From assembly GCA_013336285.1 (NCBI GenBank), contig JAAXTX010000003.1, forward strand, positions 3,448 to 67,447: a DNA stretch of 64,000 bases, given 5' to 3'. The notes under the pieces were generated by a model that was given only the letters and a program-made list of their open reading frames with translations, made no database searches and had not been told where the DNA came from. The translations under genes were made by a program, and so were the position numbers. Positions 16,249-64,000 of this stretch are shown here, piece by piece. Numbering within the stretch: the first letter of the stretch is position 1; every line of letters begins with the position of its first letter. The stretch comes from Candidatus Moraniibacteriota bacterium (GTDB taxonomy: Bacteria; Patescibacteriota; Minisyncoccia; Moranbacterales; UBA1568).

Positions 16249-17193
16249 CTATCCGATATCGTATTCCCGCTTCTCCCGGAAGAATGCCGACGCCCCCATA
16301 AGACTGACGAGAATCTGCAAAAATCGTCCAAGGAGCGCTACCGCGAGCGCCGTTTCGGGTCGTATGCCGATAAGTGGCAGAAATGCGTAGTACGCCCATT
16401 CCTTAAGCCCGATATTGTTCACGGAAACAGGAAGACTGGAGATGATGCTTATCAGGAATACGACGGAAAAGTATGGGATGATCGGTACAGGTGAACCAAG
16501 CGCCCAGAATATCATCATATTGAAGAGCCCTACGCCTACGATCGTGAATATCGCGGAAACGACGAGCGTGTCCCGAAAAAATCTGAGGTCGGTATACCCT
16601 CCGATTTCACCGAATACGTTCCGTATCTTTTCCGGTAGAAAATCGAATGCCTCATGAAGGTGCCGTCGTGCATAGAAAAAGAACGCATCAACCAGGAGAA
16701 AGCCGAATAGGGATATTCCGAAAACGGCGAACAGGTTCTGCGAGAACACGTCCTTGTATCCGATAAGTCCGAATAGGAGAAACAGGATAATGGTCACGAA
16801 CAGACCCGTGAACCTGACGAACATGACCGATGAAAATGCTGCGGCATAGCGTTTTTCCGACTTCCCGAGAATGTAACTCTGATAGGCGTCCCCACCGATA
16901 AACGACGGAAGGAAATTGTTCAGAAAAAGTCCGGCATAGAAATGCTCCCGCGCACTCCGAAGACTCATCGAAAATCCTTTGAACTGCGCGGTCCGCCACC
17001 ACCTGTGTACGCAAAGTTCGATCCCGAACACGTAGAGCAACGCGGCTACAAGCAGGAACGGAACGGAGGCCTTTGAGAATTCTCCCCACATATCGGTCCA
17101 ATCGACCCGCCAGACGAGCAATCCGATCAAACCCGCGGCTACGGTCGATTTCGCCAGCAGTTGTAACGTATTCTTCGTTCCCGGTGATGACAT
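16249..17193 (-). CDS. Flippase-like UPF0104 family membrane protein (lysylphosphatidylglycerol-synthase-TM-like).
   Basis: Eight TM helices and the N-terminal pattern LLxxxVxxGLIGLLVWRVDW, typical of this family. Family members commonly sit beside polyprenyl-phosphate GT2 genes. Confidence 0.55.
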   Translation of the reverse strand: MSSPGTKNTLQLLAKSTVAAGLIGLLVWRVDWTDMWGEFSKASVPFLLVAALLYVFGIELCVHRWWRTAQFKGFSMSLRSAREHFYAGLFLNNFLPSFIGGDAYQSYILGKSEKRYAAAFSSVMFVRFTGLFVTIILFLLFGLIGYKDVFSQNLFAVFGISLFGFLLVDAFFFYARRHLHEAFDFLPEKIRNVFGEIGGYTDLRFFRDTLVVSAIFTIVGVGLFNMMIFWALGSPVPIIPYFSVVFLISIISSLPVSVNNIGLKEWAYYAFLPLIGIRPETALAVALLGRFLQILVSLMGASAFFREKREYDIG

Positions 17194-17264
17194 ATGGTCC
17201 CGATATCAGAGAAAAACACTAAGCGTCGAGGAGCCTCTCCTCACGGAGGGAGATATACGATCTT

Positions 17265-52943: not shown

Positions 52944-53362
52944 CCCCGAAACAGGCTCATAAGCCGGATTCTGTTAGGAGCCGAGGCTCCCGATCCATCA
53001 TTTGTCTGGGACCGCCGTTACCGACGGCCTCGTGCGGCACTCCCTGACTTGCGTCGGGGCACGGCCTTGCACACGGATAAGGGTTTAGCCGTTTCACCCC
53101 GCATGTCACCATGCGGACTCGCCCCGACGAATCGGGGCGCCCTGCCCTTTCGGGCACAGAGCCTGTCTTCAAAAGTCTCTTTCGTGTAGAAAAAGGACTT
53201 TTGAAGACAGGCTCTTAGGCGTCTCTGCTCGCACCTCGCGCCTCGCGGCGGACGGGCGTTACCCGCTACCTTTTCCTCCGACTTGCGCCGGAATCGTGTG
53301 TCCGGACTTTCCTCCCCGCCAGCCACAAATGGCTGCCGAAGCGATGGCCCGGCCTGTTTCAG
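52944..53362 (-). ncRNA. rnpB: RNase P RNA (bacterial type A).
   Basis: The minus strand contains GGAAAGTCCGGAC (P4 5' strand), GGGGTGAAACGGC (J11/12-like), ACAGAATCCGGCTTATGAGCC (P4 3' strand) and P1 pairing GAAACAGGC/GCCTGTTTC. The ORF track reports only short spurious ORFs here. Confidence 0.8.
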
Positions 53363-57764: not shown

Positions 57765-57945
57765 GATCCATATGCGCCTCCGCATTGGGGGTTTTTCTTA
57801 TCCAAAAAATTGCGTTCCATACGGCCTCCGCAACGGGGTTTTTCTTATCCAAAAAATTGCGTTCCATACGGCCTCCGCAACGGGGTTTTTCTTATCCAAA
57901 AAATTGCGCTCCATACGGCCTCCGCAACGGGGTTTTTCATTGCAA
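57765..57945. repeat. Tandem direct repeat with a 47-bp unit in about 3.8 copies (GGGGTTTTTCTTATCCAAAAAATTGCGTTCCATACGGCCTCCGCAAC). It is not CRISPR-like, because there are no spacers.
   Basis: Unit starts are at 57788, 57835, 57882 and a partial copy at 57929. Copies are near-identical with one T/C difference. Each unit can form a TTGCG..CGCAA hairpin followed by a T-run. Confidence 0.8.
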
Positions 57946-58146: not shown

Positions 58147-58180
58147 AACGGGCACGTTATTTTCGTGCCCGCCGTTTTTC
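58147..58180. terminator. Bidirectional rho-independent terminator. On the minus strand it closes the AAA+/vWA operon, and on the plus strand it would end a transcript coming through the repeat region.
   Basis: Stem gggcacg/cgtgccc around a ttatttt loop, then gccgTTTTTc. On the minus strand the hairpin is followed by TTTTCTTT. Confidence 0.65.
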
Positions 58181-59108
58181 AATCTTCGTTCATTTCCAAT
58201 GAGTCATACTGGCTCGAGAGTTTCCTGAGATCCTCCAGATCCCCTCCGATGCATACGGTATGCAGGGTACAGTTGAGCTCCTTCAGACGACCGGACACCA
58301 TCTTACCGTTTACCCCCGCAGTACCGTCGGTGACAAGGAGAATCTTCGATTCCCCGAATCCCTTCTCTTCGGCAATCCGGAAGGCTTCCGCTAGGGCATG
58401 GTTGATATCCGTACCGCCGAGCGGATGTAACGCCCTAGCGAGTCTCCCTCGCAATTTGTCCGCGGATTGCTGGTCCGTGACCTCGCTCACTTCCCTGATG
58501 GTATCGGTATAGACGATCAGGATCATCTCGGCGCCGATCTTGACGCACCTGCCGATCAGTTGATCGACCAACGATATCGCCCATTCGACTCGCCCGAATT
58601 CCTCCATACTTCCCGATGCGTCGACAACCGCGATAAGCGCGTTGGCGGCTTTGCCCACATACTGGCGATATTCCTTGACCAGATGGCTGTTCACCGCAAG
58701 ACCGGCATAAAACTGTTCATCCGGAAGCAGCTGTGCTGTCGGTGACATGCGTCTCCATTCCTGGATTCCACGCATCGGTCGCATGGAAATATCGCGGACC
58801 GGATACATCGACTCTCGCGGTTCCGATCCGGGTATCGGCACATCCGACACCCTCTCCGTTTCGACGAACCGGATCGAATCGACTAGCCTCCTGATAAGCT
58901 CGTTCTTCCTCAGCCGCAAGTCACCGGAACGCTTATTACGATATTCTCCCTCTTCCCCTCCGGATAGGTCCCCTCCAGGCCCGTTTTCACCGGTACCATT
59001 CGGCGGGTATTCGGATGAAGGCCCGTCCCGCTTCGCTTTTCTTTTCGCGAGGAGCCACCCGATCGCCGCGGCAGCCGCAGCGGCCGCAAGATACACTAAC
59101 CATTCCAT
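58179..59108 (-). CDS. Membrane-anchored von Willebrand factor A (vWA) domain protein (ViaA-like partner of the upstream AAA+ ATPase).
   Basis: N-terminal TM helix (LVYLAAAAAAAAIGWLL), MIDAS motif VVDASGSM, and further vWA elements (LLVTDGT). Confidence 0.75.
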   Translation of the reverse strand: MEWLVYLAAAAAAAAIGWLLAKRKAKRDGPSSEYPPNGTGENGPGGDLSGGEEGEYRNKRSGDLRLRKNELIRRLVDSIRFVETERVSDVPIPGSEPRESMYPVRDISMRPMRGIQEWRRMSPTAQLLPDEQFYAGLAVNSHLVKEYRQYVGKAANALIAVVDASGSMEEFGRVEWAISLVDQLIGRCVKIGAEMILIVYTDTIREVSEVTDQQSADKLRGRLARALHPLGGTDINHALAEAFRIAEEKGFGESKILLVTDGTAGVNGKMVSGRLKELNCTLHTVCIGGDLEDLRKLSSQYDSLEMNED

Positions 59109-59111
59109 CCG

Positions 59112-60389
59112 TTATCCTCCCTTTTTGAGTCCGGCAAGTTTAAGCGCCTTTTCTTCCGCTTTCGTACGCATCTCCGCGAGTCTCGCCTTGAGATTTCGCT
59201 CCATCCCTTTCGCCGTGTCACTCTCAGGCTTCAGTTTCGACAATTCGGATTCGATCTCACCAAGAGCCTGGGAAAGCTCCCGAAGACCGTTCACGTCAGA
59301 GATAAGATCAACACTGAAGCTCTCAATCCTGGATATCAGTCCGCGGAGCGCCATACAGTGTGCGTCATTCATTTCGGCCTCGCGTTCCTTTTCCAGCTTC
59401 TTGAGTTCCTCATCGATTATGGACTTCAACAGCGCCTGTTCCTCAACCGACGAGCACAGCGCGAGTTCCATCGAATACAGGTCCTCGGGCAGCACGTATT
59501 CCCTTGCCGCGAGAATTGCGGTCACCTCCGCGGTCTGCGTCGCAAGACACAGTCTGCGATCGGATATCTTCGGGAAAATGACCGTCGCTTTTCCGGACTG
59601 GATCAGCTGCTCACGCTTCACGCGATACTGATGAAAGATTCTGCCCATGGCCCTGAACAGGGCTTCATCCCTGATCATGGATGGGAACTCGAGCGTCAAC
59701 CGGGAGAGGTCCTGAATATCCTGCAGTCTCAGTTCGCCGGAAAACGCATGCATGCTGCCGTTTTGGAACCCCTTGATCATGGTGGTGATATCGGATTCGC
59801 TGTCCAGATAATCCACATAGGTCATATAGAGGAAGCGGTCAAGTACGGCAAATGCCTGCTCGTTGCGTTTCAGATACTGGCCTGGTTCCACGTTCGTGTC
59901 ACAGTAAGCCGTTACGAGCGGCAGATCGACGACCTGACTTCCGCGCTCAAGGACTCGCTCATTCAGTTCCGACAGCATAGAGCGGAGCAACGGAAGGTTC
60001 GCGTCGAGGAATTCACCAAGACGCGCGATATCGGCCTCGGGAAGCATTCCCGCGATATTGTGTTCCAGCCTTCCCTCTTCCCGCATCACCTTCGGATTAT
60101 AGGGACCGTTCAAAGCCGTATCGTCCATGAACATGTTCAGCTCGATCTTGAAGATCTTGCTGCCGTTCACGCGGGACGTCAGTTTGTTGAACAGCGCCGT
60201 TTTCGAAGTGCCGGGAGGGCCGAAAACCAGGACGTGCTGTTTCTGGATGAGTCCGTACTTCAGAAACTTTATCAACTGTTCCCGATGCACGAAGCACTTT
60301 TCCAGCTCAGTGAAGAAGGCATTATACCTTTCCACGGTCTCCTGAAATGCCGTTCCGGACAAACGGGGCGTATTCGATTTTTTTGTCAT
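59112..60389 (-). CDS. MoxR-class AAA+ ATPase, RavA-like.
   Basis: Walker A reads VLVFGPPGTSKT, and the region EGRLEHNIAGMLPEADIARLGEFLDANLPLLRSMLSELNERVLERG aligns with RavA. The Walker B position appears as LGE rather than LDE. There is a C-terminal coiled coil. Confidence 0.72.
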   Translation of the reverse strand: MTKKSNTPRLSGTAFQETVERYNAFFTELEKCFVHREQLIKFLKYGLIQKQHVLVFGPPGTSKTALFNKLTSRVNGSKIFKIELNMFMDDTALNGPYNPKVMREEGRLEHNIAGMLPEADIARLGEFLDANLPLLRSMLSELNERVLERGSQVVDLPLVTAYCDTNVEPGQYLKRNEQAFAVLDRFLYMTYVDYLDSESDITTMIKGFQNGSMHAFSGELRLQDIQDLSRLTLEFPSMIRDEALFRAMGRIFHQYRVKREQLIQSGKATVIFPKISDRRLCLATQTAEVTAILAAREYVLPEDLYSMELALCSSVEEQALLKSIIDEELKKLEKEREAEMNDAHCMALRGLISRIESFSVDLISDVNGLRELSQALGEIESELSKLKPESDTAKGMERNLKARLAEMRTKAEEKALKLAGLKKGG

Positions 60390-60510
60390 TGTCCCACTCC
60401 TTTTTTGGAATTATTAAGGCGCAAATATATTCGGATATGAAATCCAAATAAAGCATACGATAGTATATAATTTTAATTTTGTCAAGTATTTTATACATAA
60501 TGGAGTTGAG

Positions 60511-60548
60511 AAAAAAAAGACGGACCAGAGCTTTGCTCTGATCCGCTT
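60511..60548 (-). terminator. Rho-independent terminator between the TerF-like vWA gene and the AAA+ gene.
   Basis: On the minus strand, GGATCAGAGC-AAA-GCTCTGGTCC followed by GTC-TTTTTTTT. Confidence 0.6.
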
Positions 60549-60574
60549 CGTCGATTTGACGACTTTGTCGTCGT

Positions 60575-61348
60575 TTACTTCTTCAACCAGTCGATCAGCT
60601 CCTGCTGAATGAGAATCTGGTTGATTTCCTCATCGGACATCTTCAGGAATGCCGGAATGTTACGGCAGATGTGAAGGCCGGTGTTGGAGAACTCGTCGGC
60701 GATTTCCTGAAGGAAGCGGAACTGGCCGCCCTGATTGGAAAAGGCGAAGAACTGTACGTACATCTCATCTCCACGCTGTTCCATCTCCTGAAGCAGCTGC
60801 CTGGTCTCGGCCTTATCGCTATTGTCACCGTCCGTACCGAACAGTACGAGCGATTTCCGCTTGACCGAGGTATTTACGGATGCCGCTGCCGGCTGAGCAT
60901 GACCGCCGAACATTTTTCCGAAGAAACCGCCGGATTTAGGCTGAACTGCGGCGACATCAGGTGCGAGCCATCCGAAATGCTGAAGGTTCTTTCTCAGGAC
61001 ATAATGATAGTCCGTGCCTCCGTTGTACCCAGGCACCTTATCGATGATATTGTCCCAGACATAGTTCAGATAATTTTTCTCATTGATCTCCCCGACATAA
61101 TACGCGTTCCGGGCACCGTTACTAAAGGTGAACATGTCGATCTTCTTGTCAGGGTCGAACACGAGCCCCCACGGGATCAATCTGGATACGATATCATTGG
61201 TCAGGCCAGCCTTATGTTCATCATCGAACGAACCGGACACGTCCAGATCGAACGCGACGTCCACGGAAGGGATATTCGTGATACCGGCTTTCTGCAGATC
61301 GAGTACCAGCGTCTGCTCCGCTTTCTTCAAATCGAGTGCGAGTGCCAT
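60575..61348 (-). CDS. vWA domain protein of the TerF/TerY-associated type (vWA-TerF-like).
   Basis: MIDAS motif FDLDVSGSFDD, GGTDYHYV and LVLFGTDGDNSD. The N-terminal segment MALALDLKKAEQTLVLDL resembles the TerD-family N-terminus. Confidence 0.55.
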   Translation of the reverse strand: MALALDLKKAEQTLVLDLQKAGITNIPSVDVAFDLDVSGSFDDEHKAGLTNDIVSRLIPWGLVFDPDKKIDMFTFSNGARNAYYVGEINEKNYLNYVWDNIIDKVPGYNGGTDYHYVLRKNLQHFGWLAPDVAAVQPKSGGFFGKMFGGHAQPAAASVNTSVKRKSLVLFGTDGDNSDKAETRQLLQEMEQRGDEMYVQFFAFSNQGGQFRFLQEIADEFSNTGLHICRNIPAFLKMSDEEINQILIQQELIDWLKK

Positions 61349-61373
61349 GCGGCTTCTCCTTTGTTTAGTTTCG

Positions 61374-62567
61374 TTATTTCGACTTCAATTGATTTACCAC
61401 ATCTTCCAATCCTCGCTGGACGGTATAAACATCCGTCTTCGTGAGGTCTTTCGCCTGTACGATTCCAACCTGTTCGATCCAGGCCGGAAGTTTCAGCAGT
61501 ACGCCGTCTTGAATCCTGGAAATCAGTTCCCCGATCTCCCGGACCATCGATTGACGTCCGATGTCCCCCTGCTTGATCTGCACGACGGTCTGAGTCAGAC
61601 TCAGGCTCCGCTCGAGCAGACGCTGTGACAATGACTCTTGTTCCGGAGTCTTGTTCGTCAGCAGGTTCGACAGGTAATGCGCCGCAAGACTTTGCGCTTC
61701 CAGCGTGACCGACAGACTCACATACTCCCGTGCCCCGTCGTCGATCTTCGACTGGATATCTATGATATCCGGCAAAACCGCGCGAAGGAACGTGCTGAGC
61801 TGGTCTATCTCGGCCTCCCTTTCCCGAAAAGCCTCCAACGGGCTTTCCCACTTTTTCCAGAACGCGAGTCCGGAATTGTCCTGGTTCTTGAACGAATCGG
61901 CCACTTCCAGAAGCAGGGCATACAGGCGCCCAAGATGTCTTTGGCTGTCCCGTATCCTCTCGCTCCCGGTCAAAGCTAGCGATTCCTTCACCAGTTTACC
62001 GTACCGTTCCTGATCCTTGGTCCCCCAACTGACGCTGATTTTCATCGTAAGCGTCTCAAGTACCGTCTTGATCAGGATGTCCCTGACCGCCGTCAGCGTC
62101 TCGACAGAATTCGCGGGGAACCGCTTTGTCAGTTCATTCATCTCGACTTCCAACCCCTTTCTAACGACGCCGCCGGGAATGGTCGTCGATTTGGTGACCG
62201 TCATCGGCTTCCTTTCATTCTCCGGAATCACTTTGGGAGGAGGAGCCGACGGTATGACTGTCGGCTTCCTCGGCGGTTGTTCTTTCTTCACCTCAGGCAC
62301 TGAGCCTTTTTCCGGAACAGGTCCGGAAGGAATGATTGTCGGCCGGACGGGCCCCTTTAGCGGAGCGTTACCGGATCCGATGACCGTCGGCTTCAGTCGA
62401 TCATGTGGAGGATCCTGTGACTCAGTTGACCGACCGATATTCTGGGCGACGATAATCGTCGGCTTGAATACGGTAGGTTTCACCTGATTACATTCCCCTC
62501 CGATAATCGTCGGCTTTAACTCTCCGGATCCAGTGCCGGAGACGGCAATTGGTTCTGTCCCCAGCAT
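61374..62567 (-). CDS. Protein with N-terminal K-P-T-[VI]-I repeats (about 7 copies) and a ~250-aa alpha-helical C-terminal domain. A TelA-like assignment is possible but unverified.
   Basis: Repeats read KPTIIGG, KPTVFKPTIIV, KPTVIGSG, RPTIIPSG, KPTVIPSA. The C-terminal domain is predicted to be coiled-coil/helical. Confidence 0.4.
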   Translation of the reverse strand: MLGTEPIAVSGTGSGELKPTIIGGECNQVKPTVFKPTIIVAQNIGRSTESQDPPHDRLKPTVIGSGNAPLKGPVRPTIIPSGPVPEKGSVPEVKKEQPPRKPTVIPSAPPPKVIPENERKPMTVTKSTTIPGGVVRKGLEVEMNELTKRFPANSVETLTAVRDILIKTVLETLTMKISVSWGTKDQERYGKLVKESLALTGSERIRDSQRHLGRLYALLLEVADSFKNQDNSGLAFWKKWESPLEAFREREAEIDQLSTFLRAVLPDIIDIQSKIDDGAREYVSLSVTLEAQSLAAHYLSNLLTNKTPEQESLSQRLLERSLSLTQTVVQIKQGDIGRQSMVREIGELISRIQDGVLLKLPAWIEQVGIVQAKDLTKTDVYTVQRGLEDVVNQLKSK

Positions 62568-62588
62568 GCTGGCTCCTGTTTGAGTTTT

Positions 62589-63209
62589 TTACTGAAAGTA
62601 TCCGAGAATGGCATTGAAATCGCCGTTGAAGCCGGACCCAGCCGCTTCATACGACCATCCGTTCGCACCGAGAATGAGGCTGCCCATCTGGACGGCATCG
62701 AACTCGCCGAACTGATTGGAGAGTATGTACTCCCCAAGAATCTTCCCGCTTTCGTCCTTGATCCTGATACCAGCGTCCGTCACCTGCGAAAACTTCGCGG
62801 TATGTGTCGGATGTATCGTGACAAATATCGGGATTTCGTTCACGCCCGGCGGGATCAGACTGCCGTCGATCGTAATGATCTCGTCGACCGTTGCACCGAT
62901 GCCCGTTCTGGCATCGCCGCTGTGGCGCAACGACCCGCATGGCGTCATGAACGGCCGTTTGTCGCCAGACTTTCTTGACGAGGCTGAACCGTCAGCCAGC
63001 GGAAGGCCTGGATTATAGGTCGAGAGGACCTGGGCCATGTCGGTGATCTTCGCACCAAAACCGTTATTGGTGGCAAGAAGCGCATGACCATCAAGATCGT
63101 GCTCTGATTCCCAGAACAGCTCGACGGAGAACTTTGCGCCTTTGTCAAGGTTCAAGCTCAGCTTAGGGGCGACGTCGCCTTCTTTCTTGAGAGGAAGTGT
63201 TAAAGCCAT
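62589..63209 (-). CDS. TerD-domain stress protein (TerD/TerE/TerZ family).
   Basis: MALTLPLKK...LSLNLDK N-terminus and the calcium-binding-type motif RHSGDARTGIGATVDEIITID (consensus HSGDNxTGEGDGDDE), at 206 aa. Confidence 0.75.
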   Translation of the reverse strand: MALTLPLKKEGDVAPKLSLNLDKGAKFSVELFWESEHDLDGHALLATNNGFGAKITDMAQVLSTYNPGLPLADGSASSRKSGDKRPFMTPCGSLRHSGDARTGIGATVDEIITIDGSLIPPGVNEIPIFVTIHPTHTAKFSQVTDAGIRIKDESGKILGEYILSNQFGEFDAVQMGSLILGANGWSYEAAGSGFNGDFNAILGYFQ

Positions 63210-63324
63210 GGTAAAATCTCCTGTTTTTGTTGGATAGTATGACGACGCACGACATGCACGTCGCCAATTTCGTTTTGTTTTAAGAAGTTGGTATATCCCA
63301 CAATCGCCGATCCGCCGAAGCGTA

Positions 63325-64000
63325 TCAGCTTTTCAGGGCAAGCATCTCACGCTGGGCCTGTTCGAACATCTGACGCGTCTGATCGAACTTTGCCTTGTTC
63401 GACTCGATCGCCTGCTTGTTGATCGCCTCGAGTTCCTTCGTCTCCTTGACGATGTCCAGGATCTCCTGTGCCTGTGCCAGACGATTATCCCCCGGTGCGT
63501 TCGCGGCCTTGGTAATAACTTCCCTCCCCATACTGCCACTGATAGCGGCGATGTTCTTGTCGAGAGCATCGCTTTTTTCCGCGATCATCTGATTTTCCCT
63601 GATGGTGATCGCGCTGTGAAGCTTGAGGAGATTTTTCTTGATATTTACGAATTTGCCGACGATCGAATTGGCGGTCTCTTCGAACTGCTGAATACCGGCA
63701 TTCTGAATCTGGCTCAATACTATGTTGTCGGCCGGCAGCTTCGTCATCGTACCCTCCAGACTCAGTGCCCGGCTGGTCAGACTCTGTAGTTTCGCCTCAA
63801 GTTCGTCGATTTCCATTTTCTGCGTGATGTTGTTCGGATCGGCCGAACTCCTGAACGCAGCAACCTGGGCGGTTCCCTTTTCGAGCAGCAGCTTCGCAAA
63901 GATGACCTCATCGACGAAGACGGGGAAAGAGTCCCTGTACGCCTTGATCCGCAACTCCATGTCCTGCACCTCATTGAGCAAGACGCCCTGTGAGACTTGC
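63325..64000 (-). CDS. Alpha-helical/coiled-coil protein, 5'-partial (runs off the window). A TelA-like toxic-anion-resistance protein is possible.
   Basis: The ORF has no in-frame stop to the window end and is Glu/Gln/Lys/Ala-rich. It lies immediately upstream of the TerD gene. Confidence 0.3.
   Translation of the reverse strand, partial: QVSQGVLLNEVQDMELRIKAYRDSFPVFVDEVIFAKLLLEKGTAQVAAFRSSADPNNITQKMEIDELEAKLQSLTSRALSLEGTMTKLPADNIVLSQIQNAGIQQFEETANSIVGKFVNIKKNLLKLHSAITIRENQMIAEKSDALDKNIAAISGSMGREVITKAANAPGDNRLAQAQEILDIVKETKELEAINKQAIESNKAKFDQTRQMFEQAQREMLALKS

Follow-up and report, generated by a model that had tools for sequence, protein, structure and literature searches.

A fixed-order Ter cassette with two TelA-like proteins beside a separate MoxR–vWA pair in a Candidatus Moranbacteria genome

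Many pathogens, plasmids and phages carry Ter systems, and the molecular mechanism of TelA, TerD and the TerF von Willebrand factor A (vWA) protein is not established. The primary comparative-genomics paper on these systems is reportedly that of Anantharaman et al. (2012). Abbreviated TerD/TerC/TerF/TelA operons occur in phages, for example in Caulobacter jumbo phages (Iyer et al. 2021; PMC7824862), and TelA and the TerF vWA have been proposed to build sub-membrane structures (PMC7824862). TerC proteins have been connected with the export of Mn and the metalation of exoenzymes (PMC10550928). Among AAA+ systems, MoxR–vWA pairs act as chaperone and co-chaperone (PMC7159879), and RavA–ViaA acts at the inner membrane (PMC9489729). 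The MoxR–vWA–β-propeller ternary conflict systems (Kaur et al. 2020) combine a vWA protein bearing a C-terminal β-propeller of ~4 blades with a third TPR/β-propeller component (PMC7159879). Here, we analyze a locus that carries genes of both kinds at 58179–64000 of a 64,000-nucleotide stretch of contig JAAXTX010000003.1 from a Candidatus Moraniibacteriota bacterium, referred to below as the window. A first-pass annotation had described the locus as a single Ter-like module.

The open reading frame (ORF) list returned all six minus-strand genes of that annotation, which together occupy 58179–64000. The region probably represents two separate, independently conserved operons that are neighbours by happenstance, a judgement that takes in the mechanisms proposed below for each. 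Two units rather than one module are recognized because a terminator and a promoter-like site intervene between the Ter genes and the MoxR/vWA genes, and because the cassette is found without the pair and the pair without the cassette. The strong terminator noted earlier between the gene sets is real: the hairpin 3′ of the TerF-type vWA gene (60546–60520) was the top-ranked site of a terminator scan, with a 12-bp stem and a T8 tail. The promoter-like site TTGACA-17-TATCGT (60485–60457) is a candidate promoter by its consensus match, and lies 5′ of the ATPase gene alongside a GGAG ribosome-binding site. Downstream of the membrane-anchored vWA gene there is another terminator, then a 790-bp gap and pheS. 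The GC content of the region (0.51–0.54) is the same as that of the remaining window. Coordinates are collected in Table 1.

Table 1. Features of the two units, listed along the minus strand from the window edge
Feature	Positions	Strand	Details
helixA, TelA-like helical protein	63325–64000	(−)	C-terminal 225 codons of a protein of 398 amino acids (aa); ~520 bp more past window end
TerD-domain protein	62589–63209	(−)	206 aa; GDxRTG...DE motif at 62880–62918
helixB, second divergent TelA-like protein	61374–62567	(−)	397 aa; helical domain residues 140–397 = 61377–62150
Disordered N-terminal part of helixB	62244–62519	(−)	six [KR]PT[VI][IF] copies, residues 18–105; predicted local distance difference test (pLDDT) <50
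TerF-type vWA protein	60575–61348	(−)	257 aa; complete metal ion-dependent adhesion site (MIDAS): D36-x-S38-x-S40, T112, D173
Intrinsic terminator	60520–60546	(−)	12-bp stem, 7 GC pairs, T8 tail; closes Ter operon
Promoter-like site TTGACA-17-TATCGT	60457–60485	(−)	5′ of MoxR gene; 10/12 consensus positions
MoxR-class AAA+ ATPase	59112–60389	(−)	425 aa; Walker A 60198–60221; Walker B RLGEFLD 60003–60023; coiled-coil C-terminus
Membrane-anchored vWA protein	58179–59108	(−)	309 aa; transmembrane (TM) helix 59046–59102; MIDAS DASGS 58608–58622
Bidirectional terminator hairpin	58147–58173	(−)	10-bp stem, 7 GC pairs, then T-rich tail; closes MoxR–vWA operon

Related loci were gathered from assemblies, GTDB genomes, JGI metagenomes and IMG/VR with the helical proteins helixA and helixB as markers; the genome scan for cassette relatives used a five-sequence alignment, and locus content was read by tblastn with all six window proteins. 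The order helixA–TerD–helixB–vWA(TerF) was found at 38 loci, corresponding to 26 distinct other cassettes at 95% TerD identity. Twenty of the 26 are complete, 17 of those with at least 1.5 kb of downstream sequence, and tblastn detected neither the MoxR ATPase nor the membrane-anchored vWA (TM-vWA) in any of the 26 loci, with flanks of up to 10 kb. A further cassette in a Moraniibacteriota metagenome-assembled genome (MAG; L010), outside the 38 loci as its TerD lies off the contig, likewise has no MoxR–vWA pair within 5.7 kb downstream. The cassette hosts include Nomurabacteria (L009), Moraniibacteriota MAGs, Variovorax, Acidovorax, an 80-kb phage contig and a TGA-recoded genome of 30% GC. TerC/DUF475 lies immediately upstream in six loci (L002, L003, L005, L006, L007 and L009) and was detected in further ones. 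The layout had been called non-canonical and unexpected. The Ter part is a recurrent operon (26 loci), which in part bears out the condition that the annotation itself had set against its reading; the domain assignments, whose profile scores lie far above chance level and which conserved orthologues in other loci corroborate, and the host, a member of the candidate phyla radiation (CPR), stand. Our literature search found nothing on Ter genes in Patescibacteria.

Three of these loci are described in more detail. The recoded genome (L002, positions 1–21086; JGI Ga0633758_000056, a 344-kb contig with 30% GC) has 26 ORFs of at least 200 aa when TGA is read as sense, versus 7 without. Because its flanking genes, such as that for ribonucleotide reductase, form long ORFs only with TGA as sense, while the five Ter cassette genes have no in-frame TGA, a recent import of the cassette into this genome is suggested. 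A phage-like contig (L007:8678–16386 and L057, IMG/VR UViG_3300012005_000004, 80 kb) carries the cassette with five small unknown genes between helixA and TerD and also encodes DNA ligase, adenylosuccinate synthase and dihydrofolate reductase. Elsewhere, a helix-turn-helix–HipA toxin pair and a GmrSD_N-like gene (L005:12310–13937 and 16691–17215) stand beside the cassette in a defence-island-like setting.

The MoxR–vWA pair has its own distribution. ATPase orthologues with 35–51% identity are each directly followed by a vWA gene of ~300 aa in five other distinct loci (L016/17, L018, L019/20, L021 and L022), none of which has a Ter cassette. One of them (L022) encodes a Pfam-positive TelA and a DUF4178 protein 2.7 kb downstream of the pair, and in another (L019/L020) a Band_7 protein lies upstream. 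The evidence is clearly against an obligatory six-gene module. Two side observations concern the neighbourhoods of these loci. The pair of one locus is followed by a protein of 418 aa (L019:9610–10866) that matches FG-GAP (β-propeller) weakly, the only hint of a third component in any of them. SmpB adjoins the pair in L018 (5836–6276) and L022 (229–696) and is found near the Ter cassette in L004 (16229–16678); its proximity probably reflects conserved local synteny, not a functional link.

The assignment of the central Ter genes is straightforward. As the annotation had proposed, the 62589–63209 product is a TerD protein, carrying the string RHSGDARTGIGATVDE and matching Pfam PF02342 well above its cut-off (E=1.9e-19, 70.3 bits; cut-off 25.3). 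It also matches the TerD structures of the PDB (Klebsiella 2KXT, E 5e-10; 3IBZ, E 2e-9) and phrog_5698 (E 1.5e-22). The last gene of the cassette, annotated as a TerF-type vWA with a DxSGS MIDAS, matched PF10138 (vWA-TerF-like; E=3e-14, 54.1 bits; cut-off 29.4) and phrog_5359 (E 8e-40), and a sequence search of the PDB gave no match for it. Its MIDAS residues are contributed by DVSGS from residue 36, GGTD from 110 and TDG from 172, and it is 44–52% identical to the final gene of every related cassette. The two proteins begin almost identically, TerD with MALTLPLKK (63183–63209) and the TerF-type vWA with MALALDLKK (61322–61348), both on the minus strand. No Pfam match to TerB or to phosphoribosyltransferase (PRTase)/HAD nucleoside-signal synthesis genes was found among the six window proteins, and none is present in the precomputed Pfam calls for genes within related cassettes; a PRTase_3 fragment lies ~2 kb upstream of TerC in L002 only.

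The two helical proteins that flank TerD required family-level comparison. The ORF of helixA is open at the window edge and 100% identical to a 398-aa protein (P0013; HGA31_01090, Candidatus Moranbacteria bacterium), which confirms a CPR host; the full length comes from Logan contig L001, reaching 360 bp beyond the window, and from P0013. As single sequences, helixA and helixB gave no Pfam match, TelA (PF05816) included, and no match in a sequence search of the PDB. The AlphaFold2 model of helixA is all-helical with very long helices, and TelA proteins account for nearly all of its top viral fold matches (E 2e-5 to 8e-3). In the helixB model, a C-terminal helical domain with two ~60-residue helices (pLDDT >90) follows 135 disordered N-terminal residues. 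Its best viral fold match is a 336-aa CcrColossus protein, K4JW31, with annotated TelA proteins next; by its 336-aa length K4JW31 matches gp218, the gene after TerD in the CcrColossus Ter cluster.

Profile searches place both proteins close to TelA. The helixB profile recovered 385 cluster representatives at E≤1e-3 among 1.84 billion, and 26 of the 110 representatives scanned matched Pfam TelA at E≤0.01 (best E 1.3e-8), no other family recurring in the Pfam scan of these 110. For helixA, one of 16 family members matched TelA at E≤0.01. Alignment of the two families with hhalign gave 93% probability (E 2.4e-7), and alignment of either with phage TelA gave a probability below 1%, the phage alignment holding only two sequences. 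The TelA link rests on the Pfam scans of family members and on the fold matches; these matches, together with the helixA–helixB alignment, indicate two divergent TelA-like paralogues flanking TerD, with membership at the level of the superfamily, not of the curated family. The earlier statement that the KPT-repeat protein (helixB) has no obvious characterised homologue is correct for the single sequence and not for its family, in which 26 of 110 members reach Pfam TelA; the model also matches phage TelA folds. Two family members are fused, one to TerD (P0103) and one to part of TerC (P0082), which would fit a physical association.

The KPT repeats of helixB are present as had been described, in six [KR]PT[VI][IF] copies. 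Across 153 helixB-family representatives, the [KR]-P-T-V-I-G motif occurs 247 times, versus 17±5 in shuffled sequences (14-fold), with one to seven copies per protein and 97% of the copies inside the first 150 residues. The N-terminus of the helixA family has one copy of a close variant, M[KQ]P[RT][VI][LI]G[SG]. A motif scan found no [KR]PTVIG in canonical phage TelA proteins or in gp218. Since this is a short linear motif, placed in disordered regions and common to both paralogues, it would most simply indicate a common docking partner for the two scaffolds, for which TerD, the TerF-type vWA and TerC are candidates. A [KR]PTVIG docking-type motif common to both TelA-like proteins appears to be a new detail.

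From these results we propose for the first unit (60575 to beyond 64000) a Ter-type cassette that is compact, horizontally mobile and fixed in its order, [TerC]–helixA–TerD–helixB–TerF-type vWA. The helixA and helixB paralogues would form a helical scaffold beneath the membrane, beside the TerC membrane protein. Their disordered N-termini, with one copy of [KR]PTVIG in helixA and two to seven in helixB, may dock multiple copies of one cassette partner, either TerD or the MIDAS-containing vWA, and the resulting metal-dependent assembly might answer envelope or ion stress, or invading DNA.

The gene next to this cassette, as annotated, encodes a RavA-like MoxR AAA+ ATPase with a GPPGTSKT Walker A (residues 57–64). 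PF20030 (bpMoxR) describes it best (E=2.3e-33, 115 bits), AAA_5 (PF07728) matches too (E=7.5e-10, 39 bits), and RavA is its closest solved relative (3NBX, E 7e-19, residues 19–325). RavA orthology was rejected, the score against NCBIfam NF010054 being 65.9 bits with a cut-off of 681. Alignment to RavA confirmed the suspected LGE in place of LDE at Walker B: RLGE aligns to FLDE of RavA, so that the canonical hhhhDE is not matched. Of 32 subfamily members, 26 have Gly-Glu at this position; Asp-Glu or Glu-Glu is retained by distant members and by viral relatives. An Asp three residues past the Walker B Glu is a trait of the wider clade. The subfamily alignment shows no variation in Walker A, sensor 1 N166, R185 or R278/R279. 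Conservation across the subfamily led us to reject an error or a pseudogene, and the Asp→Gly change is, from the alignment, a conserved functional variant. With Gly in place of the Walker B Asp and the remaining catalytic residues intact, hydrolysis is likely to be slowed or regulated. The subfamily-wide change appears to be a new detail.

The partner of the ATPase is, as the annotation had it, a membrane-anchored vWA with DASGSM. It matched VWA (E=1.3e-9), VWA_CoxE and VWA_2, with no Pfam match outside vWA-type families, and has a hydrophobic helix at residues 3–21, followed by KRKAKR, and DASGS at residues 163–167. Comparison of the six vWA partners showed that the hydrophobic N-terminus and the middle region are conserved, and that D163, S165, S167, T233 and D261 (the DxSxS…T…D MIDAS) are invariant. 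As the hydrophobic N-terminal helix is followed by basic residues, the vWA domain should face the cytoplasm. We read the second unit (58179–60389) as a self-contained MoxR AAA+/vWA chaperone pair, in which the vWA subunit may be tethered at the cytoplasmic membrane face by its single N-terminal helix, the intact MIDAS would grip a client and the ATPase would remodel it.

Several points weigh against the reading of two operons with these mechanisms. We infer the link of [KR]PTVIG to any partner, and long helical proteins by their nature match one another only weakly in Foldseek (TM-scores 0.4–0.5). The P0103 and P0082 fusions could be gene-call artefacts. The window stops within helixA, so that any TerC of the present genome is out of view. 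The Ca-binding loop of TerD has fewer acidic residues than that of 2KXT, and Ca2+ sensing by this TerD is for that reason uncertain. Lastly, a TelA-superfamily gene lies within 3 kb in two of the six distinct pair loci (the window and L022), which leaves some room for a loose thematic or functional link of the pair with membrane scaffolds.

Of the alternatives, the one that survives best derives the cassette from a phage, as a superinfection-exclusion or anti-phage module that a CPR genome captured. There are PHROG matches for TerD, for the vWA protein and for the ATPase, TerF-type vWA proteins were found in 160 phage records, the full cassette is on the 80-kb IMG/VR phage contig, and Ter genes have been proposed as phage-versus-phage weapons (PMC7824862). 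However, PADLOC-DB v2 gave no defence-model match below E=1e-3 for the six proteins, weak P-loop matches being all that it returned, the regional GC equals that of its surroundings, the neighbours are housekeeping genes (pheS/pheT, RNase P RNA), and neither an integrase nor phage structural genes were noticed in the vicinity. We regard this origin as possible, if on balance doubtful.

A second alternative makes the cassette mainly an accessory to metal handling by TerC, such as Mn2+/Ca2+ export and the metalation of exported proteins, instead of a scaffold against stress or invaders. The upstream gene is usually TerC/DUF475; Mn export and the metalation of exoenzymes are functions of TerC proteins, meeF standing in the B. 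subtilis yceCDE-meeF operon (PMC10550928); TerD has a Ca2+-binding fold, as the 2KXT match shows; and the vWA MIDAS is metal-dependent. Yet the distribution is patchy and extends to phages (L007/L057, CcrColossus, phi92-like), the recoded genome seems to have imported the cassette recently, and HipA and GmrSD-like genes accompany it in L005, a pattern that suits conflict or stress cassettes better than housekeeping metal homeostasis. A primary role in metal handling is unlikely.

A bolder reading takes [KR]PTVIG as a previously unrecognised docking code of a distinct, self-contained five-gene Ter subtype, in which one monovalent and one multivalent TelA-like scaffold would recruit TerD or the TerF-type vWA to a membrane-proximal assembly around TerC, and the CPR Walker-B-variant MoxR/TM-vWA pair as a dedicated remodeller of TelA scaffolds. 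It would explain why a TelA-superfamily gene neighbours the pair at two of its six distinct loci; we nonetheless consider it rather improbable. That all six genes form one functional super-module, with the MoxR–vWA chaperone assembling or remodelling the TelA/TerD/vWA scaffold, is very unlikely: the units share a strand, lie 185 bp apart and are both membrane-proximal, and pairs elsewhere stand 2.7 kb upstream of a Pfam-positive TelA and DUF4178 (L022) or adjoin a Band_7 membrane-scaffold protein (L019/L020), but a strong terminator together with a promoter-like site stands between the units here, the pair is in 0 of 26 distinct cassette loci and missing likewise from two other CPR genomes (L009, L010), and Ter-type genes are absent from four of the five further pair loci.

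Outside the two units, a 47-bp tandem repeat (3.6 copies, 95% identity, 57767–57938) lies within the 790 bp that separate the TM-vWA gene from pheS; on the plus strand, each repeat unit has a small GC hairpin with a T-run after it. An Rfam search over the whole window returned RNase P RNA alone, with no match in the intergenic regions of the locus or at this repeat. The RNase P RNA (bacterial class A, 52944–53360, minus strand; 105 bits, gathering score 100) lies between pheT and a sugar-transferase-like gene.

The two operons found here, read as independent, are of interest for separate reasons. The fixed-order cassette is a minimal Ter form that has spread over CPR bacteria, β-proteobacteria and phages, and its occurrence demonstrates the presence of Ter-type cassettes in CPR genomes of only ~1 Mb. 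The motif repeated on both TelA-like proteins offers a testable handle on assembly. The Gly-Glu MoxR subfamily could help to dissect how nucleotide state is coupled to vWA partners.

Comparison with described systems places both units. The classical ter/tel operons (enterobacterial terZABCDEF; B. subtilis yceCDE-meeF(yceF) with yceGH downstream, where yceH is a TelA) join a TerD fold, TerC and TelA in one stress-induced operon, as is well established (PMC10550928). In contrast to these, the window has a single TerD in place of several paralogues, the cassette genes seen come without TerB and the PRTase/HAD signal-synthesis genes, and it adds two divergent TelA-like paralogues and a stand-alone TerF-type vWA. 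Closer is the Ter cluster of CcrColossus, gp218–gp222, which we confirmed in the phage genome. Its component set corresponds to that of the cassette with its usual TerC: TerC/DUF475, TelA (TelA-like in the cassette), TerD, a TerF-type vWA and an extra helical protein of ~336 aa, the best structural match of helixB. Its order is different (TelA–vWA–TerC–TerD–gp218), its TelA scores 121 bits against Pfam TelA whereas helixA and helixB of the window score nothing, and its TelA and gp218 are without [KR]PTVIG.

For the second unit, E. coli RavA–ViaA has the same gene order, AAA+ then vWA, and RavA is the nearest relative of known structure. The ATPase differs from RavA in the Gly at Walker B and in its C-terminus, where no LARA-type region was matched, the alignment stopping at residue 325 of 425 with a coiled-coil tail after it; the vWA partner, unlike ViaA, is anchored by an N-terminal TM helix. 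With the ternary MoxR–vWA–β-propeller systems the pair shares its ATPase domain, PF20030 being named for these systems. A ternary system was ruled out, as the vWA protein ends ~9 residues past its vWA domain and is followed by the terminator and pheS, with no propeller and no third component. Nothing in the locus is categorically new: set against these systems, it is a fixed-order, two-TelA Ter cassette with a shared docking-type motif, beside an unrelated MoxR(Gly-Glu)–membrane-vWA pair.

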